A stretch of 32,000 bases of DNA, taken from the NCBI GenBank assembly GCA_023898425.1, contig CP060222.1, positions 420,001 through 452,000 on the forward strand, given 5' to 3'. Below, in pieces: positions 4,490-18,526 of this stretch; the first letter of the stretch is position 1, and the number at the start of each line of letters is the position of its first letter. The translations under genes were made by a program, and so were the position numbers. Under the pieces are notes generated by a model. That model was not told where the DNA came from, did not search any database, and was given only the letters and a program-made list of their open reading frames with translations. This DNA comes from Candidatus Saccharimonadota bacterium (GTDB lineage Bacteria; Patescibacteriota; Patescibacteriia; 2-12-FULL-60-25).

Positions 4490-5594
4490 CTAGCGTTTTG
4501 AGCAACCAAGCGTCCGATGCCATAGACCATGCTCTTGGCGAATATAGCCTTTTAATTCAAGCAAACTAAGCCCTGCTAATACCTGTGGAGAAAGTCTACC
4601 GGTTGCTAAACAGAGGGCGTCTATGTCCATTGGTGAGTCTAATAGAATATAGAGACTTTGTTCTTCTGGTGTTAAGGGTAATTGCTCTCTCATTTGCTGA
4701 GCGAGAGCAGGCCTATCAAGCGATAAAGCGTCTAAAATATCTTGGGATGATTCGCAAAGGCGCGCGCCCATTTTAATAATTTGATGACACCCATGAGACG
4801 ATTCGCTCCAGATTGCCCCAGGAACAGCCAAAACCTCTCGCCCCTGTTCTATGGCTAACCGAGCGGTAATTAACGAGCCACTGTCAGCTCCTGCCTCAAT
4901 GACAACGGTTGCAAGGCTAATACCTGCGATAAGTCTATTGCGTTGTGGAAAATGTTCTTTGCGTGACGGTGTCCCAGGAGGGTATTCGCTGATGATCGCA
5001 CCTCCTTGTTCTAAAATGTTCTGCGCGAGTCGATAATGCTCTTTTGGATAGATACTTTCATCATCAACGCCGGTGCCTAGGATCGCGATAGTTGGCATTT
5101 GAATATCAAGAGCTCGTTGATGCGCTAAGCCATCAATCCCAAGCGCTAATCCAGAGCAGAGTGTTAGTCCGTAATGTGCTATTGGGTCTAGTAAATGTTC
5201 GATGACGCGTTTTCCATAAGTGGTATTTCTTCTTGACCCGACAAATGCAATCGTTGGAAAAGCGGGGATAGTGCCACGCACAAATAAGCACTCAGGAGGA
5301 TTCTCAATAGTTAATAATTCTTGTGGATATGTTGGATCACCCCGTAAAATTTGTTGTATGCCAAGACGGGTTGTTTTTTTGGAGATGTTCGAGAAAAATC
5401 CCATCACGACGCCATTCACAATAACGTTTTGCCAATGCTAAAGGCCAGCCAAAATCAGCAATAAGTTCACTTTGGCTCACATGCTCGATATCACGAATAC
5501 CGTGAAGTTGTTCACGCAATTGTCTTAACCGATGACCCGTTAAGCCAGGAATATGCGCTACAGCGCGAATGTAGGTAGAAAAATCATTTTGCAC
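4490..5594 (-). CDS. dprA: DNA processing protein DprA/Smf, read in two frames (apparent frameshift)
   Basis: Track ORF 4490..5419 carries the DprA core (FVGSRRNTTYG, SGLALGIDGLAHQRAL, FPQRNRLIAG). Track ORF 5337..5594 encodes the N-terminal helical domain (IPGLTGHRLRQLREQL...). The frames meet at the T7 run 5374-5380; one extra base there would give ...EHLQKKTTRLGIQQILRGDPTYP. Confidence 0.85.
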
Positions 5595-6165
5595 CTAATA
5601 CTCCGTTCCACGAAGTCGATGCTTGTGTCAAGCCGTCTTTTACCCAAGAATCTAGCGCTTCTAAAAATGTATCAGCTTGTTTGTTTAGAATTTCTTCCTC
5701 TTCTTTTGTAAAACGCTGTAATACATAATCTTCCGTCTTCATATGCGCTGGTGGACGACTTACGCCAATACGAAAACGAGCAATTTCTTTTGTGCCAAGT
5801 GACTGTTGAATTGACGAAATACCGTTATGACCAGCCGCGCTCCCTTGTGCGGTAAATTTTGCTTTTCCAATAGCAAGATCTAACTCGTCTTGCAAAATAA
5901 GTACTTGGTCAGGAGAAATCTTATAAAATGACATGATGGCTTGTACGGCTTGCCCTGACAAGTTCATAAACGTGGTCGGAAAAGCACAAAAAACACGCTC
6001 TGAGCCAATACGAAAACCCGTTAATTGAGCTTTAAGAGCGCGATTTTTTTAAAAATCGTCAGCGTTATGATGTTCGGCAAAGGCTTGAAGCAATTCCCAA
6101 CCAATATTATGGCGGGTTTTGTCATATTCTTTGCCAGGATTACCCAAGCCAACGATAAGTTTCAT
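5584..6165 (-). CDS. pth: Peptidyl-tRNA hydrolase interrupted by an in-frame TAA
   Basis: Minus-strand translation from the ATG at 6163-6165 gives [73 protein letters not shown]... in the same frame as track ORF 5584..5967 (GHNGISSI motif). The stop codon is at 6049-6051, at a T7/A5 homopolymer boundary. Confidence 0.85.
6077..6162. repeat. Copy A of an imperfect ~90-bp direct repeat (the true pth 5' end)
   Basis: GCAAAGGCTTGAAGCAATTCCC..CAATATTATGGCGGGTTTTG.TCATATTCTTTGCC...CCAACGATAAGTTT recurs at 6378-6470. Identity by eye is roughly 80%. Confidence 0.8.
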
Positions 6166-6470: not shown

Positions 6471-7979
6471 ACGCAGCTTATCACTGCGTAGTTTTTTAGA
6501 AGTGCGTGCGGCCTTTTTGTGGCGACGCATGGTTTGATTCACGAGTTTTGGTTTGTGACGAACGACACCAGCCACTGCTTCCATACCAGGACCAAACATA
6601 TTACCTGGTTTTTCTGATTTAGAGACAGGGAGATGTTGGACTTTTACGACAATTGGCGTACCGATAAAGCCAAACTTTTCACGAATACGTTTTTCAAAGA
6701 ATTTAAGCCAGTTTGGATGCAAGTTGTCTTTTTCACCGTGCACTGTAACCATGAACGTTGGTGGTGCGTGTTTTGTCTGTGCGACATCAAAGACGCGTGG
6801 AGACTTTGGACCATAGCTCGCCAAAGGACGCATACGTTGAATCGTTTTCTTTAAGAGTTTGTTTGCCGCGTTATAATCGATATGACGCATGCGCTCATCT
6901 TGAACCTCTAAGGCAAGATCAATGAGTTTGGCACTACGTAAGTTTTCTTTTGCACTTACAAAAATCATTGGTGCCCAGCTTAAGAACGGAAAGAGCTGTC
7001 TGATGAGCACTTCATATTCTTTGGCGGTATTTGTTTCTTTGTTTTCTACCAAATCCCATTTGTTGGCTACGAGAATCAAGCCTTTATTTGATTCTTCAAG
7101 CATCCCTGCAAGATGACGGTCCCATGATGTTGGATCTTGCGTTGCGTCAAAGACAAGCATGGCAACATCCGAGCGCTTAACAGCATCGCGGTTACGTTCG
7201 AGACTTTCTTCTTCGATGCCTTTTGTAACGCTAGAGCGTTTACGCATACCTGCCGTATCAACAAGCACAATGTCACGATCTTGGTATTTTAAGAGCGTAT
7301 CTTGTGGCTCGCGTGTTGTATGAGCGATGGGGGACGTGATAACGCGCTCTTCACCAAGAATACTATTGATAAGTGATGATTTACCAACGTTTGGACGACC
7401 AACAAACGTCAAACGCAATGGAAGCATGTCATGCTTCATCACTGGAGGCTTACCGGCTTTGTCGAGTGTCAAAAAGATATTATCAAGTAAATCTCCAATA
7501 CCAAGACTCGTTGAGGCACTCACCATGTGAGGATCACCCAAGCCAAGACGAAGAACATCACGTGAATAGGCGCTGCCTGTATCACGGATCGTATCAACTT
7601 TATTCGCAAGAAGTTTAACGGGCTTATTAGAAAGTTTAATTTCTTCTGCAAGTTCTAAATCTTGCGGAAGAATGCCGGTTTTCGAATCAAAGACAAAAAG
7701 AATAAGGTCAGCTTCTTTGATGGCAAGTCTCGCCTGATGAAGGATGCCTTCACCAATGGAGTCATGCTCCGTGTCCATACCACCTGTATCAATCAATTCA
7801 AAAGCTGCACCTTGCCATAAGACGATGCCATAATTGCGATCACGTGTTGTGTGTGACTCTGCGCTCACAATCGCTTTACCTGATTCGGTGAGGCGATTCC
7901 AGAGGGATGATTTACCGACATTGGTTCTGCCAATGAGAGCAACCTTGGGATAATCAAGGGTTTGTCGTTGTACTGACAT
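6441..7979 (-). CDS. der: Ribosome-associated GTPase Der/EngA (double GTPase domains)
   Basis: Two G-domains: GRTNVGKSS/DTGG/NKVD and GRPNVGKSS/DTAG/NKWD, then a KH-like region and a basic C-terminal tail (RRHKKAARTSKKLRSDKLRK). Confidence 0.95.
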   Translation of the reverse strand: MSVQRQTLDYPKVALIGRTNVGKSSLWNRLTESGKAIVSAESHTTRDRNYGIVLWQGAAFELIDTGGMDTEHDSIGEGILHQARLAIKEADLILFVFDSKTGILPQDLELAEEIKLSNKPVKLLANKVDTIRDTGSAYSRDVLRLGLGDPHMVSASTSLGIGDLLDNIFLTLDKAGKPPVMKHDMLPLRLTFVGRPNVGKSSLINSILGEERVITSPIAHTTREPQDTLLKYQDRDIVLVDTAGMRKRSSVTKGIEEESLERNRDAVKRSDVAMLVFDATQDPTSWDRHLAGMLEESNKGLILVANKWDLVENKETNTAKEYEVLIRQLFPFLSWAPMIFVSAKENLRSAKLIDLALEVQDERMRHIDYNAANKLLKKTIQRMRPLASYGPKSPRVFDVAQTKHAPPTFMVTVHGEKDNLHPNWLKFFEKRIREKFGFIGTPIVVKVQHLPVSKSEKPGNMFGPGMEAVAGVVRHKPKLVNQTMRRHKKAARTSKKLRSDKLRKLIVGLSKY

Positions 7980-9447
7980 AGTTGGTGGCTTGGGTAGGTT
8001 GCATGAGCGAATAGGATGATTCGCCTAAAATAACGAGAAAATCGGTATCGGTGGAGGCAATTGTCTCGATCGTATTGGCTTGTGCAAAAACACTACGCAA
8101 TTGGGGGTTTTGGGGTGATGTCGTAGCCGCTGTGAGTGATACATCAGCGTTTAAAAACTCCTTTAATTTGACGAGCTCTTGTACTTTACTACCATTCGTT
8201 AAGTCAAATATCACAGTTCTCTCATATTGTCGAGAGCTTGCATTGCCAATGGACTCTGCTGAATACCCCTCTAAACCGAGGCGATTGGCGATCTGAAATG
8301 CCATACCGGTCTTAAAGGTACCGTTTTTTACCTCAACCTTAGGGATGTCTGCCACTGGAGTGTGGATGTCGTCATTAAAGGGGTTTTGCGCGAGTGACTT
8401 GATGCGAGTCCAGTCACCACCCTTCGGAAAGAGTAAAAAGCTACCATTGATATTAGCTGGTACAAGCTCACCGTCTGGTGCGTCTGTGAGTACATGTTGT
8501 TGAATCTCGTCCTTATTAATGTCGGTTGCGATAGGAGCGAGGTTGAATGCCTCCCAAGGACTCATGTCTGATTGTAGGTGGTTTGAAACTACTTGGTAGA
8601 GCTTAGCAAGCTTGGTGGGGTCGGCGAGTGTATTTAAAGAGAGGAGTTTTTCACGAATCGCCACGATGACGAGTTGCTGTCTTTTAGCGCGAGCAAAATC
8701 TGAGCCTTCTCCATTTGAGCCATGACGAGAACGCGCATATTGAAGTGCTGTTTCACCGTCCATCGTTTGTACGCCTTTCTTAAAGCTGATGGTTTGGTAC
8801 TTATCGTCTGCAGCAGGGTAGGAAGTATCCGTAAAGGAGCGTTCAACATCAATAGTGACACCGCCAAGCGCATCAACAAGTTTTGCAAAACCGTTAAAAT
8901 CAACACGGACAACATGATCAATACTGATACCAAAAAAATCTGAGAAGATTTTAGCTGTTCTTACTGCACCTTCTCCTGGATGATCGCGTTCTTCCCATGC
9001 GTGAACAGCATTTATTTTTTCATAACCACCACGACCATTTGGAAATGCCGTATCACGAGGAATCGAAAGCATGTTTACTCGGTGGTCTTTTGTATTGATA
9101 GAAGCAATGATAATGGTATCTGTCAGGTTCGCTCCATCATGACCTGCGCCACCGATACCGAGTAACAATACGGTTAAGATATCAGGATTTTTATCCTCGC
9201 CAGATAATGCGATGCCGGCGATAGCGGGTAATTCGTCACCAAAGACAAATTTACGTGCATCACGAATACCAGGTAAACGAATAAACTCTGCAAAAACGCT
9301 AGTGCCGTGTTGTACGGAACGATAAGAGGCTGCAGCACCAGCAAAGGCTATGCCACCAACGATAAACGTAAAGAGTGCTGCAAAAATGACGGTTTTACGT
9401 CGGGCAAGCTTCTCTTGATCCGTATTTAAAAAATTCACTGACATCAT
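7954..9447 (-). CDS. LytR-CpsA-Psr (LCP) family cell-envelope phosphotransferase with LytR_C-like C-terminal domain
   Basis: N-terminal TM segment (VIFAALFTFIVGGIAFAGAAA) and LCP core LLLGIGGAGHDGANLTDTIIIASINTKDHRVNMLSIPRDT...RSRHGSNGEGSDFARAKRQQ. The start may be the second ATG at 9444. The 3' end overlaps the der start by 26 nt. Confidence 0.9.
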   Translation of the reverse strand: MMSVNFLNTDQEKLARRKTVIFAALFTFIVGGIAFAGAAASYRSVQHGTSVFAEFIRLPGIRDARKFVFGDELPAIAGIALSGEDKNPDILTVLLLGIGGAGHDGANLTDTIIIASINTKDHRVNMLSIPRDTAFPNGRGGYEKINAVHAWEERDHPGEGAVRTAKIFSDFFGISIDHVVRVDFNGFAKLVDALGGVTIDVERSFTDTSYPAADDKYQTISFKKGVQTMDGETALQYARSRHGSNGEGSDFARAKRQQLVIVAIREKLLSLNTLADPTKLAKLYQVVSNHLQSDMSPWEAFNLAPIATDINKDEIQQHVLTDAPDGELVPANINGSFLLFPKGGDWTRIKSLAQNPFNDDIHTPVADIPKVEVKNGTFKTGMAFQIANRLGLEGYSAESIGNASSRQYERTVIFDLTNGSKVQELVKLKEFLNADVSLTAATTSPQNPQLRSVFAQANTIETIASTDTDFLVILGESSYSLMQPTQATNYVSTTTNP

Positions 9448-9554
9448 GCGTAAAATACCGTTAAGAACAATCGGAGTGTATCAGAATACGGCTATCCACA
9501 CAATGCGTCAAACCTTTAAAATATTTGAAGTGCGCTTCGTTTATCCCCATGGCT

Positions 9555-9579
9555 TTGACCTTATATAATGTGGTATTAT
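9555..9579 (+). promoter_or_regulatory. Candidate promoter of the T4SS-like module (TTGACC ... TGGTATTAT extended -10)
   Basis: TTGACC at 9555-9560 and TGGTATTAT at 9571-9579, with the ATG at 9593. The 13-nt spacing between TTGACC and TATTAT is short, so the extended -10 is the main support. No Shine-Dalgarno sequence is visible. Confidence 0.35.
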
Positions 9580-9592
9580 AGAGAACGAAATT

Positions 9593-12500
9593 ATGTTCAC
9601 CTTCGAACGTCTACGCGCGTCCCTTCAAACTCAACGTAGCAAAAAGTTTTTTGCAACCGTTATTGTAGCTGTTATCGCCATTATCGGTGTCTTTGGCACG
9701 ACTCATGGAGTTTCTGCACAAACTCAAACAGCTCCGACAGGTGTTTGTAGTGATGCTGGCATAATTAGCTTTGTTTGTAGTGGTGTTTCGTTCGTGCTCG
9801 GAATGATCGCCGAATTTCTTGGGAGATTGATTTTACTGGTATTGAGTGTTCTTATTGCCTTTGCACAGTATAATGGGTTTTCTACGGCGCTACCTGTTGA
9901 GCAAGGCTGGGTAATTGTTCGCGATGTCACGAACATGTTCTTTATCATTGTCTTATTGCTAACGGCATTTGCCACCGTAATAGGAAGAGATGAGTATCAC
10001 TATTCAAAAATTTTACCTGGACTATTACTGCAAGCTGTTCTCATCAACTTCTCTAAAACAATCATTCAATTGATGATTGATTTTTCGCAGGTGGTGATGC
10101 TTACGTTTGTAAACGCCTTTGCACAATCTGCTGCCGGTAATTTTATCTATGCATTAGGCTTGGATAAAATGATGAATCTACGCCCTAACAGTGGCGTCGA
10201 AATATCAAGTCTCATGATCGCATACATGTTAGCGATTTTCTTCATGTCGATCACATTAGGTGTAGTGATTATTCTTACGGCGTATCTTATCTATAGAATA
10301 GTTGCAATTTGGATTGCCCTTATTCTAGCGCCATTAGCGTTCTTTGTAACTGCACTACCTGGTAAATTTAAATCATCCCTAAAAGGAGTCGGTGATGAAT
10401 ATTGGGGAAATTAATGGGTATGCTCACAGGGGGGTCCCGTCATGGCTTTTTTTCTTATGGCTTACATTAGCCATAACGCAGCACTCTTCATCTGCTGCTA
10501 CAACCAATGCTCGAGAAAGAGGTAGTTTGGCGGCTAATTTAAATCTTGTATTGCCAAGCACTGGTGAGGATACGGCTGGAACTGTTACAGCTTCATCATT
10601 CGGATTTATTAGCCAGATAGCTGATACAGAGCATATTGCCTCTTTTGTTGTTGGTATCGCTTTAATGCTGGCAGCTCTTGATGCTGCTGTTGCTAGTGCT
10701 GCTATCGTTGGTGCAGGTGCTATCGCTGCATTAACAAAGAGCAAAGCGCTTAGCTGGGGTAAAAGCCTAGCTACAGCGCCAATTAGCTTAGGCGAAGGCA
10801 TTGCGAAAAGTGGTTATGGTGTCGTAGATCGTCGTTTTGACCTTACTAGAAAAGCTTCATTAGTTGGTACAAGAGCTTTGGCGCTGACTCCTGCGGCTTT
10901 ACGTGGTGATACGTATAAAAAGCTAAGAGGAGGACTTGTTAAAGGTGTAAATTATCGTCGTGATGAGGCAGAGAGAGACCAACAAGAAGAAGCGGCTTTT
11001 AATAGAAATCTTTCTTCGAGAGCTAAATCGTTAGAAGAACGTCAAAGTCTTCTCGGTATTGCTTCTTCTGCTAGAGCAAACAAGGATGGGATTGTAACAA
11101 AAACTTTATCTAAAGTCGGTGTTAATATTCCTCAACACTTTCTACAAAAGCAGTAGAAAACTACTATCAAGAACAATACGGTGATAAAAATTTTATTGAA
11201 GATGAATTTAAAGCAACTAAACATAAATATCGCGAACAACTAAAAGCGGATGGCATAAAGCGAGGGTTGTCTGCTGAACAAGCAGATACTGAAGCAAGGG
11301 CTGGTAGTGAAGTCATGGTAAGAAATGAATTAAACAAAAGACAAGGCGAAGCACTTAACGCTCGTTTAGCCATTGCTAGAGGTAAACTTAATAAGAAAAC
11401 AGGTAAATTTGAAAATCAAAATAGTACTGAAGTACGACAGTTAGAAGAGCTATTGAAACTAAACCCACATTTAGCCAAAGAAGGAAAAGATAAAGAAGAA
11501 GCTATCAAACGCATGATTGATTCTCCTGATCTTTACAAGGATATTCCTTTAGATACGGGGATGAGTGGTGAGTTTTTGACTGAACTCATGCTTCAAAATG
11601 GATGGGAAGATGTAAAAGATAGTAACGGTAAAGCTATAGGTTTTAGAGAAGTAGATAAAGCGGCTTGGGACTTGAAGCTAAGAGAAATGTCACGTGCAAA
11701 TCCTGCTGTGAGAGAGGCAATGGATGCACATGAACGTTTTGCTAAAGCATCTCCTGAAAAATCATCAGCACAACTTAAGAAAATACACCATGTCAAAAAC
11801 TTTAGCGATAGAACTGTTCAAGCATTCGCAATTGACAACGTTGATAATACCTCGCCTAAAATGGTTATAGGCAGTCGAGTTCGTGGCACCGAGCAACAGG
11901 CGGCATTAGATGCTAGTAAGCGCGATTCCGGGTCTAGTACACCTCCAAATGTAAAGGGTATTGTTGATGCAGTGATGGCTGGTGCACCGTTGGTTGAGGC
12001 ATTAAATAATGCTGGATTTACAGATACGGATCAATCTCCTCTAGAAAAAACTATCTACTGACTACGTAGCGCCTACAGCATTGCAAGCAACATCCGTATT
12101 GAAATCAAGCATCGGCGCACAAGATGCGCGTAATAGAAGGTTGATACAAGCAGCTAATAAGCGATATGAAAAAGCACTTGATGCAGCAATCGTAAATTTA
12201 GAAGGTTCAGCGCTTGATGCTGAAGAACAGCGTTTAGCTGCTGCTAGAGATGCTGCGATCAAGTTAGTTGAGTCAAGTACCGATACTGCAAAAAAACAAT
12301 TAGTAAATGATGCGGCTAGACAAGCGCAAGACGTTATAAAGGTTGTTGCGCAAGCGGCTACAAAAGGAGTTAAAAGGTCACAACAAGAACTCGTGGTGGG
12401 TGAGTTTATGAAAAATAATGGTACAGATATTATTACCGATATTGAACGCTTTGATAATGATTCAAAAATAAGAGCAATGAGTATTATCGAAATGACACGT

Positions 12501-12623
12501 GATATTGCAAATGATGTGCTTAAGGTCGAAGCGTCTAAACGCACAGCATCACAAAATGCTATTGTTGATGGATATGAAGCGCTTATCAGAGATCTTTCTA
12601 AAAAAGGTTTGCAGGAGAACTAA
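9593..12623 (+). CDS. Giant VirB6/TrbL-like polytopic membrane protein with a ~600-aa charged helical tail, read in four frames (three apparent frameshifts)
   Basis: Joined from track ORFs 9593..10414, 10392..11156, 11267..12061 and 12081..12623. At each junction the next frame opens before the previous stop, and a 1-nt change in a run restores continuity: G4 at 10404-10407, A4 at 11146-11149, A6 at 12045-12050. The N-part has at least 7 hydrophobic segments. The tail is rich in K/E/A/R/Q (e.g. EQRLAAARDAAIKLVESSTDTAKKQLVNDAARQAQD). Confidence 0.6.
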
Positions 12624-12670
12624 GAAAGAATCTTACGCAAATTCCTAATACAAAATCAAGAGCTTAACCT

Positions 12671-14239
12671 ATGGATAGAATTGAATGGCAAGCAAGGTTT
12701 AACCTACTTCCGCAATCCGTGAGTGGGTACTTGCTTAGTACTACCGCAGAAGAGCTTGAAGACTCAGTACGTGAAGATCTAGGCTATGATTATGATGCTT
12801 GGTCAAGAATTATTGATGTGATTTGGGAGTTGTTCCTGACTCATTTAGACAAAGATAATTTTGTTCAAAAGCTTATACCTCTTTTAAATGGACGTGATAT
12901 TAATGAGGTGTTAAAAAAAAATACTATTAAAGATCGTTTTACCTGTATCTGACATCATTGATTGGGATGTAGAAACAGCTTTGCAAGAGCTCGGCGCAAA
13001 TCAAAAAGAAATGAGCTTGAGACGACGCATTTCTGTTTTACCCGTTACGTATAGTGCTGCCGTTAAACGTATTGCCGCAAATGCTCAAATCAGTGTTTTA
13101 CAGGATGAGCTTGTGCGACGATTACGTGATCTACTTGTTTCATTGATTACTGGTGTGAGAAATGATGATACAGCCCTTGAATTTTTGCAAAAAGAAAACA
13201 AACCGAAGGAGGTTTAGGGTTTACTGAAAAACAAGCAAAGGATTATTTAAATGAACTTGATGCTTTTTGGCAAGTTCACGTGTTATTAGCGAACAAGATT
13301 ATTCTGAGTGGTTTAGGACGTCACGAACACAAGAAGCTTTTGAATGGAAAGCTCCATTGAATCTTGACGTTAATGACAATACGGATAGTGAGGCGAATAC
13401 TGAACCAAATAAGATACGCCTCCAAAAAAAAATATGAACCCATTTTACAGGCGGCAATTTCAGAATGTCTACAACAAATCGGCGACCTCTCATTAGACGA
13501 ATATCTTAGTAAGCGCTTAGAGAATGTTATTTCTACCCGTTTACGAAATGTAAGAAATGATATCCAAACACTTGATGTTTTAACGCGAGATAGCAAGATT
13601 GGCGGTATCAGCTTGTCCAAAGAAGAGGCTGATAGAATCTTGCATATTATCGAGGCCAGCTATGAGTTACATCATAGCGACATTGAAAATGCGCAAAAAA
13701 AACGTATCCAAGACACAGAGATAGCGCAAAAACAAAAAATCGAAGAACGTAAGATACAAGAAAGCGAAGCGCATGCTGATTGGTACCAAGAAAAAGTAGC
13801 GAAGCCTGCCTTTCAGAACCCTATGACAACTGGCAATGATACAACAATGCGCCAAACACCTTCTAATACAGCTGTCCGGCCTAATATGTCAGGTATTACG
13901 GCGCCTGCAATGCAGCTATCAGATCTCATTGGTGAGTTTAAGACACTTGATATTCAAGAATTTCGTCGATTATCAAGTGACCCAGAGCAAGCAGGGGATA
14001 AGCTCTTTCAGAAATTTGAGACACTTCGTGCTGAATCTTTTGACCGTTATACAGCCGGCATTGCCGCTTGGAGAAGCTCGCCCTTACAAAAACGCTATCT
14101 ACAACTCGTGAGTGAGAGCTTTTCTGAAGGCAAGACGGTTGCAGAAGTCGCGGAGAAACATCTCGCGCAAGATCCAAATACACCAACCGCAGCAGAATTA
14201 GGAGCGATCATTACGCTCAATGCCAAGATACAATATTAA
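12671..14239 (+). CDS. Hypothetical soluble protein with an internal two-fold repeat module, read in five frame segments (four apparent frameshifts)
   Basis: Joined from track ORFs 12671..12952, 12981..13217 and 13364..14239 plus two unlisted segments (about 13205-13270 and 13261-13435). Junctions lie at A9 12913-12921, CC about 13203-13204, T5 13264-13268 and A9 13424-13432. The repeat pairs LVRRLRDLLVSLITGVRNDDTALEFLQKENK.EGGLGFTEKQAKDYLNELDAF with LSKRLENVISTRLRNVRNDIQTLDVLTRDSKIGGISLSKEEADRILHIIEASY. Confidence 0.6.
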
Positions 14240-14248
14240 TGCTATAAT
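14240..14248 (+). promoter_or_regulatory. Extended -10 element TGCTATAAT 6 nt upstream of the GTG start of the PrgI-like gene
   Basis: Exact TGnTATAAT consensus, then spacer TCTTTT, then GTG at 14255. This suggests an internal, near-leaderless promoter for the prgI-virB4 block. Confidence 0.4.
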
Positions 14249-14254
14249 TCTTTT

Positions 14255-14698
14255 GTGCCAGATAAGTTCATTGTCCCTCAATTTATTGATAACGAGAATA
14301 AGATTCTCGGTCCTATTACGGTACGTCAATTCATGATCGTATTAGCGGCAGTATTCTTGCTATTCATCTCTTATACGATTTTCAGTTTTCCGGTCTTTCT
14401 CTTTACGGTCATACTTATTGCTCCATTAGCGGCGACTTTTGCTTTTGTAAAAATTAACGGACAACCATTTCATCTTTTTGCTATTAACGTTTTACAAACA
14501 ACGGTGAGACCAAAAATTCGTGTCTGGAATAAAGAAAAAAATGATGCAGAGATTCGTGCTTATATTAAGGACGGACAACCAAAAGCAACAAATGAAATCG
14601 CAGCTCCCTCAAAACCTAGGCCAGATAGCACAAAACTTCGTGATTTAACGCTGATTGTAAATACAGGAGGCGTCTATAATCCTGACGATCAAACGTAA
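14255..14698 (+). CDS. PrgI family / VirB3-like T4SS membrane protein
   Basis: 147 aa with a GTG start. The N-terminus VPQFIDNENKILGPITVRQFMIVLAAVFLLFISY is followed by a second hydrophobic segment (FPVFLFTVILIAPLAATFAF). This is the hallmark layout of PrgI-like proteins, and it sits directly upstream of a VirB4 ATPase. Confidence 0.7.
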   Translation: MPDKFIVPQFIDNENKILGPITVRQFMIVLAAVFLLFISYTIFSFPVFLFTVILIAPLAATFAFVKINGQPFHLFAINVLQTTVRPKIRVWNKEKNDAEIRAYIKDGQPKATNEIAAPSKPRPDSTKLRDLTLIVNTGGVYNPDDQT

Positions 14699-14699
14699 T

Positions 14700-15389
14700 A
14701 TGAAAAGTAAAATGACTTCAAAAAAACCAGGTGTAGCTTCTCAACGCTATCTCGATATCGCAGAAATTCGTGAAAACATCGTTATCATGAAGGATGGTAC
14801 CCTTCGTGCTGTCTTGCTTGTTTCTAGCGTAAACTTTTCGCTTAAGTCCGTTGATGAGCAGCAAGCAATCGTGCAAGCCTACATGCAGTTTTTAAACAGT
14901 ATTAATTTTCCTATCCAAATCGTTATTCAGTCTCGCCGGATGAATATCGATAATTACATGGATAGACTCAAAGAAAACGAAAAAATACAAGAAAATGAAC
15001 TTTTGAAAAGACAGATTCGTGATTACAGAGATTTTGTAAAACAAATGGTGACCTTGGGCGATATCATGCAGAAGCGTTTTTATGTCGTTATCCCGCTAGA
15101 CCCAGCAAAAGACGTTACCAAAGACATTAGAAAAGGATTCTACGCAAGATTAACTGAGATTTTATCTCCTACTATTGCCGGCAAACTTACCGAAGAAAAG
15201 TTTCAGAAAATGAAGTTTGATCTTGGCTTGCGTGTCAGTCAGGTTTCATCAGGACTTTCATCAATGTCACTTAATGCTGTTCAGCTCGATACACAAAGTC
15301 TTATCGAACTTTACTATACGATCTATAATCCTGAATTGTACGAATCCCAACGCATGACGGATGTTAGTAATCTTCAACTAGAAACGTAA
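14700..15389 (+). CDS. Stand-alone protein resembling the N-terminal (pre-ATPase) domain of VirB4
   Basis: 229 aa. Its element order matches residues of about 55-190 of the downstream ATPase: YLDIAEIRENIVIMKDGTLRAVLLVSSVNF vs IKDLIAPASFVVDPSFLRLGDVFCRTLFVVTYP; FPIQIVIQSRRMNID vs LDISMFFYPIDAPVV; a charged coiled segment; then FYVVIPLD vs FFQFAFYCTFYS. It has no P-loop. Confidence 0.45.
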   Translation: MKSKMTSKKPGVASQRYLDIAEIRENIVIMKDGTLRAVLLVSSVNFSLKSVDEQQAIVQAYMQFLNSINFPIQIVIQSRRMNIDNYMDRLKENEKIQENELLKRQIRDYRDFVKQMVTLGDIMQKRFYVVIPLDPAKDVTKDIRKGFYARLTEILSPTIAGKLTEEKFQKMKFDLGLRVSQVSSGLSSMSLNAVQLDTQSLIELYYTIYNPELYESQRMTDVSNLQLET

Positions 15390-15390
15390 T

Positions 15391-17283
15391 ATGGCCTTTG
15401 AAACTCAACCAAAACAATCATTTGACCCAGCATCCTTAACCAAGGGTGGCGTTGGGTTTCAGAAAGGTAAATCTAAGGCAGATATTAAACGCGAACAAGA
15501 GGCAGAAAAAATTGCTATCGAAGAAGAGCGTATTTATCGCCGTGGCGTTGCTAGTATTAAGGATTTAATTGCCCCAGCTTCATTTGTTGTTGACCCATCT
15601 TTTTTACGATTAGGCGATGTCTTTTGTCGTACACTCTTTGTCGTGACATATCCTCGCTATGTCACGGTTGGTTGGGCATCACCAATTATCAATCTTTCTG
15701 CTGAGCTCGATATCTCGATGTTCTTTTATCCTATTGATGCACCGGTTGTCTTAAAAGAGCTCAAAGATCGTGTAGGTAAACTCGAGGCAGAAATTTCTGA
15801 AAACAATGAAAAAGGCAAGGCTCGTGATCCTATTTCTGAAACGGCATTAAGAGACGTGGAGCAATTACGTGACGATCTTACCCAAGGAATCGAGCATTTC
15901 TTCCAATTTGCATTCTATTGTACGTTTTACTCAAAAGATAAAGAAGAACTTGAGCGCGTAACAACCAAAGTCGAAAATACATTTGGTTCAATGCTTATTT
16001 ATACCAAGCGTTCGTACTTTCAATCAGAGCAAGGCTTTAACTCTACGATGCCAGTAGGTAATGACGAGTTACAAATTGCATTTAACATGAGCACCTCGCC
16101 GATTGCCTCGTCGTTTCCGTTTACATCTGCTGAGCTTACAAGCGACAATGGTATTTTGTATGGCGTTAATCGTCATGATAATTCGTTGATCATTTTTGAT
16201 CGCTTTTCGTTGCAAAATGCCAATGCTGTTATTTTTGCGACATCTGGTGCTGGTAAGTCGTATACAATTAAACTAGAGGTTATTCGTTCGCTCATGCTTG
16301 GCATTGATGTGATTGTTATCGATCCTGAAATGGAGTACAAGCATCTTTCTGACGCGGTGGGAGGCACCTACATCAACGTTTCACTTGCTTCACGATCAAA
16401 AATCAATCCGTTTGATTTACCTCGTCCAACAGGGGAGTCAGCATCTACCGAGGATATTATTCGTAGTGCCGTTATTACCATCAAAGGTCTATTGCGCTTG
16501 ATGTTGGGTAAAATCACAACAGCAGAAGACTCTATTCTTGATCGTGCACTTCTTGAGACATATGCAAAGAAAGACATCGTCCCTGGTGTAGATCTCGCAA
16601 CGGTAGAGCCACCAACGCTTCAGGACTTTCAAGACATTCTTGAGGGTATGGAAGGAACGGCTGAACTTGTTGTTAAATTACGCAAATTCTCAGAAGGTAC
16701 CTTTGCTGGTCTTCTCAATTCGCAAACAACAGTACAGATGAATAATCAGCTCGTTATTTTTTCTGTTCGTGATCTTGAAGACGAGTTACGTCCAATGGGT
16801 ATTTATACCATCGTTAACTATATTTGGAATGTTGTTCGCTCAGTAAAAAAGAAGCGCATTTTAATTATTGATGAGGCTTGGTGGCTCATGCAAAACGAAG
16901 ATTCTGCGAAGTTTATCTTTGCACTAGTAAAACGTTGTCGTAAGTATTTCATGGGTATTTCTACAATCACACAAGATGTAAATGACTTTTTGACCTCCCC
17001 GTATGGTCAAGCTATTGTTACTAATAGCTCAATGCAGCTCTTATTAAAACAATCTCCTGCATCTATTGATCTTGTTGCTAAAACATTCTTGCTTACGCAA
17101 TCAGAAAAGTACCTTCTTCTTGAATCAGCCGTTGGTGAAGGGATCTTCTTTGCCGGTGCTAAGCATGCGGCTATTCAAGTTGTTGCTTCGTATACAGAAG
17201 ATCAGATTGTTACAACAAATCCTGAGCAGCTCCTCAAGATCGAGCAACAAAAGAAAGCCTTTCAAGAATCTCAAGAACTCTAA
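15391..17283 (+). CDS. virB4: VirB4/TrsE/PrgJ-like T4SS ATPase
   Basis: 630 aa with Walker A VIFATSGAGKSYT and Walker B RILIIDEAWWLM, plus the C-terminal ISTITQDVNDF...SSMQLLLKQ motif region typical of VirB4-family ATPases. Its start is 1 nt after the upstream stop. Confidence 0.9.
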   Translation: MAFETQPKQSFDPASLTKGGVGFQKGKSKADIKREQEAEKIAIEEERIYRRGVASIKDLIAPASFVVDPSFLRLGDVFCRTLFVVTYPRYVTVGWASPIINLSAELDISMFFYPIDAPVVLKELKDRVGKLEAEISENNEKGKARDPISETALRDVEQLRDDLTQGIEHFFQFAFYCTFYSKDKEELERVTTKVENTFGSMLIYTKRSYFQSEQGFNSTMPVGNDELQIAFNMSTSPIASSFPFTSAELTSDNGILYGVNRHDNSLIIFDRFSLQNANAVIFATSGAGKSYTIKLEVIRSLMLGIDVIVIDPEMEYKHLSDAVGGTYINVSLASRSKINPFDLPRPTGESASTEDIIRSAVITIKGLLRLMLGKITTAEDSILDRALLETYAKKDIVPGVDLATVEPPTLQDFQDILEGMEGTAELVVKLRKFSEGTFAGLLNSQTTVQMNNQLVIFSVRDLEDELRPMGIYTIVNYIWNVVRSVKKKRILIIDEAWWLMQNEDSAKFIFALVKRCRKYFMGISTITQDVNDFLTSPYGQAIVTNSSMQLLLKQSPASIDLVAKTFLLTQSEKYLLLESAVGEGIFFAGAKHAAIQVVASYTEDQIVTTNPEQLLKIEQQKKAFQESQEL

Positions 17284-17286
17284 CCT

Positions 17287-17898
17287 ATGAATAAAAGACT
17301 TCTCGCAATTGCGCTCATTATCCTTGGCATTATTGGAATTATTGCCGTTATTTGGTTCTTTTTGTTTAGGAGCCCGGCCACAACACCTGTCCAGCAACCA
17401 ACTCAGAACACGGTAACACCATCACAGCCATTTAATCCTTCTACTTCTGTTCCTGTATTCGTTGCTCCTACGGGCACACCACCAAATCCAGATTCCGCAG
17501 AAGAAAAAGAGCGTCAAGCACAAGAAAAAGTACGAAGAATCGCATCTAGCTATGCTTCGCGCCTTGGTACATTTAGTGCGGATGATGGCTTTGAGGCTAT
17601 CCGTGATGTTCAAGCGATTGCTACACCTACGTTTCAACAACGGCTAGAGACACTCCGTGAAGAGATGCTCAAAACACATGCTATTGGCTCTCATTGGTCT
17701 CAAGAGGTGAGAGCTGTCACAAATGCTATTGAACCAAGCTCATTACCTATGCTTGGAAAATCGAAAGCCGTAATCAATGTTCAAGCTCAGCGTACAATCG
17801 GCGCTACCCAAGATTACCTCAATATTCAAGTAACGCTTGTTGCTCAAGGTGATAACTGGCTTGTAGATGATGCTGTTTTTACAACATTTGAAAGATAG
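17287..17898 (+). CDS. N-terminally membrane-anchored protein; candidate VirB8/PrgL analogue
   Basis: 203 aa: TM anchor LLAIALIILGIIGIIAVIWFFLF, a Pro/Thr/Gln linker, then a domain of about 130 aa that looks helix-then-sheet and ends in VTLVAQGDNWLVDDAVF. Position directly after virB4 supports the call, but there is no sequence-level family match I can assert. Confidence 0.3.
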   Translation: MNKRLLAIALIILGIIGIIAVIWFFLFRSPATTPVQQPTQNTVTPSQPFNPSTSVPVFVAPTGTPPNPDSAEEKERQAQEKVRRIASSYASRLGTFSADDGFEAIRDVQAIATPTFQQRLETLREEMLKTHAIGSHWSQEVRAVTNAIEPSSLPMLGKSKAVINVQAQRTIGATQDYLNIQVTLVAQGDNWLVDDAVFTTFER

Positions 17899-18526
17899 GA
17901 TTCTAGATGTTTTTTACCCATTCATTTGCCAATCTTGCGGGCAAATGGGTGATTGGTTATGTAGCAAATGCCAAAATGAAATCGAAGAAGTGCAACAACT
18001 GCCCGAAATTCCAGCTGGACTAGATGGAATTATTGCATGCTATGCCTATTCGGATCCAAAGGTGCGAATTTTGACAGCTTCTTATAAATATCGCTCCGCC
18101 ACCGTCCTTGAAGATATTCAAGCAAACTTACTAAAAAACTGGGTACATAAATATTCTTTACCGCTTTGGGCATATGATACATCCGCGGTACTCGTGCCTA
18201 TTGTCTCGCCAGAATCTCGAACAAGATCACGAGGCATTCGTCACACATCAAACCTTGCTAATACTTTTAAAAAAGCGTTTGAATTACCATCAGCTGTATC
18301 TGAGTATCTAGGTAGGCACGAACATCGTTATCATAACGCGGACCTTACACATGAAGAACGTAGCACTAACGTAAAAAACACGTTTTTCATTGAAGGAAAA
18401 TTACCAGAAAAAATTATTCTTATTGATGATGTCGTTACGACCGGGTCAACACTTTCAGAAGCTGCTCAATTACTCAAAGAACACGGCACAAAAGAGGTGT
18501 ATGCACTTGTATTCGCGAGAGGATGA
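17867..18526 (+). CDS. comFC: ComF family protein (ComFC-type phosphoribosyltransferase-like competence protein)
   Basis: N-terminal CxxC...CxxC (FICQSCGQMGDWLCSKCQ) and C-terminal PRT-type motif IILIDDVVTTGSTLSEAAQLLKEHG. The start is uncertain: ATG 17867 or in-frame TTG 17888. It overlaps the upstream gene and ends on TGA. Confidence 0.85.
   Translation: MMLFLQHLKDRILDVFYPFICQSCGQMGDWLCSKCQNEIEEVQQLPEIPAGLDGIIACYAYSDPKVRILTASYKYRSATVLEDIQANLLKNWVHKYSLPLWAYDTSAVLVPIVSPESRTRSRGIRHTSNLANTFKKAFELPSAVSEYLGRHEHRYHNADLTHEERSTNVKNTFFIEGKLPEKIILIDDVVTTGSTLSEAAQLLKEHGTKEVYALVFARG

Follow-up and report, generated by a model that had tools for sequence, protein, structure and literature searches.

A chromosomal type IV secretion gene cluster joined to comF in a Patescibacteria genome

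Genes of the cluster

We analysed a 32,000-nucleotide (nt) stretch of the Candidatus Saccharimonadota bacterium assembly GCA_023898425.1 (contig CP060222.1, positions 420,001 to 452,000), hereafter the window, whose own numbering is used for all coordinates. A row of plus-strand open reading frames (ORFs) runs from the ATG at 9593 through the stop codon at 18526. It encodes, in order, a VirB6-like protein, a soluble protein of about 520 amino acids (aa) that we call gene 2, a PrgI/VirB3-like small membrane protein, a TrsD-like protein, a VirB4 ATPase, a VirB8-like protein and a ComF (ComFC) family protein. We are confident that this is the cytoplasmic-membrane core of a type IV secretion system (T4SS) of the monoderm MPF-FATA (mating-pair formation) type, of the kind found in Patescibacteria: a putative VirB6-like protein, a PrgI/VirB3 anchor, a split VirB4 motor and a VirB8-like scaffold, to which gene 2 and ComF are added. 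The five downstream genes are intact (14255-14698, 14700-15389, 15391-17283, 17287-17898 and 17867-18526) and are spaced by 1, 1 and 3 nt, followed by a 32-nt overlap. The first two genes are interrupted. The VirB6-like gene (9593..12623) is split into four pieces (9593-10414, 10392-11156, 11267-12061 and 12081-12623) and gene 2 (12671..14239) into three (12671-12952, 12981-13217 and 13364-14239), so that seven ORF pieces alternate between two reading frames over the first 4.6 kb. The first-pass annotation, made from the letters of the window, had reported seven consecutive genes here; its coordinates, its order and the integrity of five of the genes hold, while genes 1 and 2 are not single ORFs, and the annotation evidently read across their breaks.

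The motor is encoded by two adjoining genes. The VirB4 ATPase (630 aa; 15391..17283, plus strand) matches NF045971 conju_CD1110 at 351.9 bits (cutoff 325) and PF19044 P-loop_TraG (1.6e-27), and carries both a Walker A (ATSGAGKS) and a Walker B motif (ILIIDEAW). The CD1110 alignment covers profile positions 170-729 of 752; the model positions before 170 are unmatched, and the protein is without a canonical N-domain. Scores to the CedB family NF041017 (54.8 bits, 6.5e-15; cutoff 700) and to the VirB4_CagE subfamily (103.9 bits; cutoff 643) fell below their cutoffs. The best 120 of 8000 scored VirB4 relatives are 80-97% identical to the protein, and the named ones among them belong to the Patescibacteria group or to Candidatus Uhrbacteria. 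The window comes from an ultrasmall, Uhrbacteria-like member of the Patescibacteria.

The product of the preceding gene (229 aa; 14700..15389, plus strand) matches the N-terminal parts of VirB4 models: positions 103-246 of NF045975 VirB4_plasma (E 2.5e-11) and NF041427 TrsD (4.7e-5), both below the full-length cutoffs, as well as positions 12-105 of CD1110 (1e-3) and the Pfam family TraC_F_IV (8.7e-4). Its orthologues (225-229 aa in close relatives) carry PF26593 TraC-like, and the gene is a separate ORF adjoining virB4 in 70 of 77 loci. Judging from these matches, the TrsD-like protein is the VirB4 N-terminal domain encoded as a gene of its own. It also matches PHROG 2666 (terminase large subunit; E 3.2e-12, residues 32-131), probably because the two have an N-domain fold in common or because the phage family is misannotated. 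Some related loci (L027, L029, L031, L034, L035 and L037) hold 5-8 kb of extra DNA between the TrsD-like gene and virB4, for example L035:4655-10001 with ORFs at 4786-6120 (minus strand) and 8702-9862 (plus strand); Pfam matches were not found for the ORFs of these insertions. A smaller gap of 1.2 kb occupies the same place in L038.

The PrgI/VirB3-like protein (147 aa; 14255..14698, plus strand) matches PF12666 PrgI at 42.3 bits (E 1.1e-10; cutoff 27) and has a hydrophobic hairpin at about residues 24-70. The bitopic protein of 203 aa (17287..17898, plus strand) gave no significant match to the sequence hidden Markov models of Pfam and NCBIfam, and its PrgL profile matches were weak (E 0.14; hhalign E 0.0015). 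AlphaFold2, given an alignment of 32 homologues, predicted a transmembrane helix, a disordered proline-rich linker and an NTF2-like domain of three helices and four strands, with a mean predicted local distance difference test score (pLDDT) of 88.3 and values above 94 across residues 70-200. The first-pass annotation had suggested comparing this protein with the VirB8 fold, and VirB8 proteins do top the Foldseek list for the model. The leading matches in the PDB were CagV (6iqt, 2e-4), Agrobacterium tumefaciens VirB8 (2cc3, 4.6e-4) and an IcmL-like protein (5cnl), joined by Brucella VirB8, PrgL (7aed, 2.4e-3), DotI, TcpC, R388 (8rtd_Y) and TraH, and the VirB8-family matches had template-modelling scores (TMt) of 0.56-0.70. 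The modelled fold supports a VirB8-like assignment, for which part of the weight comes from gene context, the NTF2 fold being common.

The VirB6-like protein (9593..12623, plus strand) is predicted from hydropathy to start with an N-terminal signal or anchor, to continue into a polytopic core of about 300 aa in the membrane and to end in a hydrophilic tail of about 650 aa. At the same position, 45 of 50 species loci have an intact orthologue of 900-1200 aa (1042-1091 aa in the closest relatives). The core has 9902 cluster representatives at E <= 0.001 (phmmer, 1.84 billion representatives). Among 44 sampled members of this core family, PF04610 TrbL/VirB6 was the sole recurrent Pfam family (4/44), and the best TrbL match (P0260) reached 25.7 bits against a cutoff of 25.9 in the part that is homologous to the window protein from about residue 137 onward. 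The topology and the place in the gene order suit a channel protein of the VirB6/TrbL/PrgH type; the TrbL matches are transitive, and the assignment is borderline.

Of 50 loci, 49 have an intact orthologue of gene 2 (12671..14239, plus strand), with a length of 515-760 aa (518-523 aa in the closest relatives). A module of about 105 aa is duplicated within the family (positions 130-236 against 262-368; self-comparison by hhalign, probability 96%, E 2e-9). Hydropathy indicated no transmembrane segment and hence a soluble product, and profile searches of Pfam, NCBIfam, PHROG and PDB sequences gave no informative match. The first half of gene 2 and the VirB6-like tail together form a 3-kb cassette (about 10462-13462) that is too divergent for blastn against L004, a close relative, and L087, a scaffold nearly identical to the window elsewhere; protein identity across it is 33-53%. 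The DNA on either side is 88-99.9% identical, and L087 turns near-identical at about 13465. This pattern suggests strain-level allelic replacement or diversifying selection within the T4SS operon.

The last gene (17867..18526, plus strand) encodes a ComF family protein of 219 aa and begins before the VirB8-like gene has ended. The protein aligns with TIGR00201 comF over positions 1-190 of 190 (1.9e-20), at 73.6 bits, below the curated 233.55, and with GntX (2.3e-15). Pfam identifies a Pribosyltran domain and a double zinc ribbon (DZR_2), and the motifs expected of ComF are visible: a four-cysteine finger (CxxC...CxxC) and the IILIDDVVTTGSTL phosphoribosyl pyrophosphate (PRPP) loop. In other bacteria ComF is a competence protein that handles single-stranded DNA together with DprA at the cytoplasmic face; binding of such DNA, a requirement in transformation and partnership with DprA/ComFA are the functional marks of the family. 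Thus the identities first proposed for four of the products (a PrgI/VirB3-like protein, a VirB4 N-domain-like protein, a VirB4 ATPase and a terminal ComFC) are borne out by these profile matches and motifs.

Conservation and chromosomal setting

The cluster lies among housekeeping genes, as had been described earlier and as Pfam confirms. Its upstream neighbour is a LytR-CpsA-Psr (LCP) gene (7954..9447, minus strand), which is divergently transcribed and forms the upstream edge of the conserved block. Beyond it are der, pth, dprA and topA, also on the minus strand, and an EamA gene lies downstream. Rfam identified a single tRNA in the window and nothing else. A scan for promoters and terminators returned fewer sites than in shuffled controls and was not used.

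We compared one genome per GTDB species, with denominators restricted to the loci that extend far enough. The scan recovered 80 loci, each from a different species, with VirB4 identities of 75-95% at the same chromosomal site. Contigs encoding the closest proteins share the neighbourhood, with pth, der and the LCP gene on the minus strand and the seven T4SS-comF genes on the plus strand; the protein at the VirB8 position is 204 aa long in close relatives and is followed by a phosphoribosyltransferase-domain protein. The TrsD-like gene is present in 50/50 loci, the PrgI gene in 49/50, and an ORF at the VirB8 position in 65/67. In all 67 species loci that extend far enough, no more than 1.7 kb separates the virB4 stop from the start of a ComF ORF. 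LCP-der-pth lies upstream in most loci. In a few it is inverted (L018, L021, L024 and L033), and there the T4SS-ComF block is undisturbed and ComF remains attached, as it does while the genes 3' of it differ among loci.

Mean column identity, computed over 43 species, is highest for VirB4 (0.82) and declines through the TrsD-like protein (0.68), PrgI (0.57), the VirB6-like core (0.4-0.6), gene 2 (0.36), ComF (0.32) and the VirB8-like protein (0.24) to about 0.1 in the VirB6-like tail. The VirB4 protein is 95% identical where the DNA is about 78% identical. The cluster is under strong purifying selection.

Pfam searches of the sizeable ORFs across the 32 kb identified no relaxase, type IV coupling protein (T4CP) or integrase domain. 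Tblastn with pCF10 PcfC (T4CP) and PcfG (relaxase) gave no match in the window and 85 related loci (86 sequences). A scan for VirB2-like pilins, as small ORFs with at least two hydrophobic segments, returned only ORFs inside larger genes and none in intergenic DNA. The cluster is a vertically inherited core system and not an integrative and conjugative element (ICE), because its gene order recurs at one chromosomal location throughout 80 species, with ComF attached in every locus that could be scored. The first-pass annotation had read the cluster as domesticated and non-conjugative and had proposed a synteny check. The block does lie between the same housekeeping genes across these species, and the chromosomal synteny agrees with that reading, as does the lack of relaxase, T4CP and integrase in the window. 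Its further statement that relaxase, coupling protein and pilin are absent holds for the 32-kb window; homologues of T4CP and VirB2 are listed elsewhere in a related Uhrbacteria genome (PMC12102498, Table S3). It had also pointed to two linked competence genes. The comF linkage stands; that of dprA is weak. The dprA gene is 4 kb away beside topA, in a separate housekeeping block of opposite orientation, and its proximity adds little.

Further downstream, two large surface-protein genes and an M23 peptidase gene (20148..27912, plus strand; Pfam) may be accessory wall-acting genes. The surface proteins (20148-23634 and 23700-26887) are paralogous beta-helix/Big/PG_binding_1 proteins; both genes are frame-broken in the window, and intact counterparts in relatives encode 1159-1171 aa. 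The peptidase gene is at 26920-27912. Peptidoglycan (PG)-binding and M23 genes occur near the T4SS in a minority of species loci only, and an association with the T4SS is possible. A patch of about 1 kb (22193-23148) in the first surface-protein gene is strongly divergent from L087, with sequence about 99.9% identical on both sides, and looks like a recombination mosaic. Just upstream of the surface-protein genes, a minus-strand gene (19544-20059) encodes a small protein with a membrane anchor and an eight-cysteine-cluster domain (TIGR04292/TIGR04289, Heavy_Cys_CGP). In the nearest relatives, too, this gene is kept beside that of the large PG-binding protein.

Relation to described systems

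In a survey of 3,035 Patescibacteria genomes, Quinonero-Coronel et al. (2025; PMC12102498) found that the VirB4 proteins of this group form a monophyletic clade nested in MPF-FATA. TrsD, VirB3, VirB6 and VirB2-like proteins are encoded around virB4, VirB8 homologues are nearly confined to the class ABY1, relaxases occur in 103 genomes only, and the T4SS loci of ABY1 commonly hold comF, recG and radA. These authors proposed the import of DNA or other macromolecules from hosts. In a Uhrbacteria genome listed in their Table S3, a VirB8-Pfam-positive gene lies beside virB4 and TrsD, and homologues of T4CP (genes 395 and 471) and VirB2 (gene 584) are far from virB4. Within the T4SS superfamily, a 2025 review already gives the Patescibacteria systems a new branch of their own.

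The cluster has the same parts as these chromosomal systems (PMC12102498; S. epibionticum ML1), namely VirB4 with a separate TrsD, PrgI/VirB3 and VirB8-like proteins and, as a borderline call, a VirB6-like protein. They are also alike in being chromosomal, strongly conserved, without a relaxase nearby and, in ABY1, linked to comF. Unlike the Saccharimonadia locus, virB4 in the window has no directly adjoining VirB2-like pilin array, lysozyme or peptidase. Within the window the cluster is not beside dnaA/dnaN, and nothing about it is different in kind. Earlier publications already report that such a system exists, that it is non-conjugative and that it is linked to comF. Possibly new details are that ComF adjoins in 67 of 67 loci, that VirB8 is assigned from structure in this lineage, that gene 2 has a duplicated module and that the cassette is hypervariable.

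The MPF-FATA prototype, Prg/Pcf of Enterococcus faecalis pCF10, shares the order VirB6-like (PrgH), PrgI, VirB4 (PrgJ) and VirB8-like (PrgL), as well as the CD1110 VirB4 family, the PrgI Pfam family and the NTF2 fold of PrgL. That system is carried on a plasmid and has a one-piece VirB4 of 796 aa, a PrgK hydrolase between VirB4 and PrgL, adhesins, PcfC and PcfG. In the cluster, by comparison, VirB4 is split, hydrolase, T4CP and relaxase are lacking, the VirB6-like protein has four times the length and a ComF gene is added. The staphylococcal Trs systems of pGO1/pSK41 likewise have a separate TrsD, homologous to the VirB4 N-terminus, beside a VirB4-type ATPase, but they belong to conjugative plasmids with relaxase and T4CP and to a subclass without a VirB6 homologue.

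Two systems that import DNA offer functional comparisons. ComB of Helicobacter pylori is a relaxase-free T4SS for DNA import that works with ComF/ComFC and DprA. It differs from the system described here in being a diderm MPF-T apparatus with VirB7, VirB9 and VirB10 and in having no genetic fusion to comF. The archaeal Ced system (CedA/CedB) also uses a VirB4-family ATPase for import and not export, whereas the window VirB4 fits the bacterial CD1110 family best and is not accompanied by a CedA-like protein.

Possible function and competing explanations

On balance, the cluster probably serves as a non-conjugative host-interaction translocon of an obligate epibiont. Its VirB6/VirB8 channel would cross the single membrane and the wall and be driven by VirB4 hexamers docked via VirB3/TrsD; host nucleic acid might be taken in and then passed to ComF. 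In S. epibionticum, T4SS genes are essential for epibiotic growth (Wang et al. 2023, as summarised in PMC12102498 and a 2025 review), in line with a role at the host interface. We put forward the nucleic-acid import step tentatively. Import of nucleic acid is the most economical specific model because the pairing with ComF is universal and strict. A bolder speculation, for which we hold out less hope, is that the T4SS and ComF of ABY1 constitute one import machine, possibly independent of ComEC, in which the VirB6/VirB8 channel hands host nucleic acid to ComF at the cytoplasmic face, and strain-specific host recognition or exclusion falls to the hypervariable VirB6-like tail together with the half of gene 2 that varies. 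If true, the hand-off to ComF and the role of the variable cassette would be the new parts, the import idea itself being an already published hypothesis. The comEC independence seen in Saccharimonadia cautions against equating such a system with classical competence.

Several observations weigh against this interpretation. As summarised in PMC12102498 and a 2025 review, transposon sequencing by Wang et al. (2023) found the T4SS genes of S. epibionticum essential for epibiotic growth and comEC dispensable, so that the functions of competence and the T4SS are separable there. The ComF linkage, like that of the upstream housekeeping genes, could reflect no more than conserved gene order within one order-level clade. 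The VirB6-like protein gave no direct match to Pfam and NCBIfam, whether searched as window pieces or as the intact L004 orthologue. Alignment of its family with pCF10 PrgH by hhalign had a probability of 0.3%, and its structural model (pLDDT 83) was without Foldseek matches. Support was likewise not obtained from Pfam searches of 48 orthologues, from profiles against PDB sequences or from tblastn against 72,556 plasmids. The VirB6/TrbL-like call of the first-pass annotation is left with borderline support from topology, gene position and the few TrbL-matching family members, every direct search having failed. Finally, five of the frame breaks bunch within the 3-kb stretch that diverges strongly from close strains, and genuine recent decay of genes 1 and 2 in the source strain is possible.

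A serious rival, although we think it less likely than not, is an export device that supplies the host with pilus subunits or with proteins such as effectors, toxins or enzymes that degrade the wall, with comF incidental and a T4CP encoded elsewhere recruiting the substrates. The T4CP and VirB2 homologues far from virB4 in the Uhrbacteria genome (PMC12102498, Table S3) would suit such a device, as would the PG-binding surface proteins and the M23 peptidase, encoded 2-9 kb downstream both in the window and in the relatives nearest to it. Possible T4SS pili of Patescibacteria are mentioned in reviews, and T4SS essentiality in S. epibionticum is, as a review summarises, independent of comEC. According to PMC12102498, the T4CP of S. 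epibionticum was non-essential and the other T4SS genes were essential, which argues against export. The ComF adjacency does so as well, since it is found in 67 of 67 loci with ORFs overlapping or near-abutting and survives rearrangement of both flanks. The PG-binding and M23 genes, too, are near the T4SS in a minority of species only.

A second alternative, which we regard as very unlikely, is that the cluster is a decaying remnant, with the VirB6-like gene and gene 2 true pseudogenes and the apparatus non-functional in the source genome. It draws on the five frame switches within 9593-14239 and on their bunching in a stretch that blastn cannot align with close strains. We consider the breaks likely to be homopolymer errors of the assembly, because all lie at homopolymers, the same defect occurs in the essential pth gene and long open frames persist. 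The runs are G6 at 10429, T7 at 10447, A5 at 11099 and A6 at 12045, followed in gene 2 by A9 at 12913, T5 at 13182 and A5 at 13189. Between the breaks the frames stay open over 190-310 codons, without additional in-frame stops inside the pieces, and the intact orthologues of L004 (1042 and 522 aa) tile over them (tblastn). In pth (minus strand), T5A7 creates an in-frame TAA at 6049-6051; L004, with T4A8 there, encodes an intact protein of 201 aa. The large surface-protein gene is split by T5 at 22256, where L004 and L087 have T4 and an intact gene, and the break at 24422 has T5 against T6 in L087, which is unbroken there. From 13465 to the divergent patch that begins near 22193, the L087 scaffold and the window share about 99.9% identity, and L087 has the in-frame length at both comparable sites. 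The remaining five genes of the cluster are intact and highly conserved. The pth defect points to an error-prone (long-read) assembly behind the window as a whole. We also considered an alternative genetic code as the cause of the split ORFs and rejected it, since all three stop codons (TAA, TAG and TGA) terminate pieces and the splits are changes of frame, not in-frame stops.

An ordinary ICE, with relaxase, coupling protein and integrase just beyond the window, would accord with the best fit of VirB4 to the CD1110 conjugation family and with the slightly lower G+C content over 11-16 kb (0.38-0.40, against 0.42-0.46 in the flanks), but it is highly improbable given that the same block keeps the same housekeeping flanks in 80 species with VirB4 identity (75-97%) tracking flank relatedness, that the borders are without integrase, repeats or tRNA (the sole tRNA is 12 kb off), that tblastn placed no relaxase or T4CP within 10 kb on either side of any locus, and that the published phylogeny (PMC12102498) shows class-level vertical inheritance.

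A host-interaction translocon of this kind bears on the biology of the group at a known point, and the finding leaves the beliefs of specialists and their testable questions unchanged. To our knowledge, Patescibacteria are unable to make nucleotides, amino acids and lipids. A major question about them is how the missing compounds are drawn from host bacteria, and the T4SS is a leading candidate for that interface. The locus adds one more well-resolved example of that interface from an uncultured class, with modest detail in the VirB8 structure, the coupling to ComF across 67 species and the fast-evolving tail of the VirB6-like protein.

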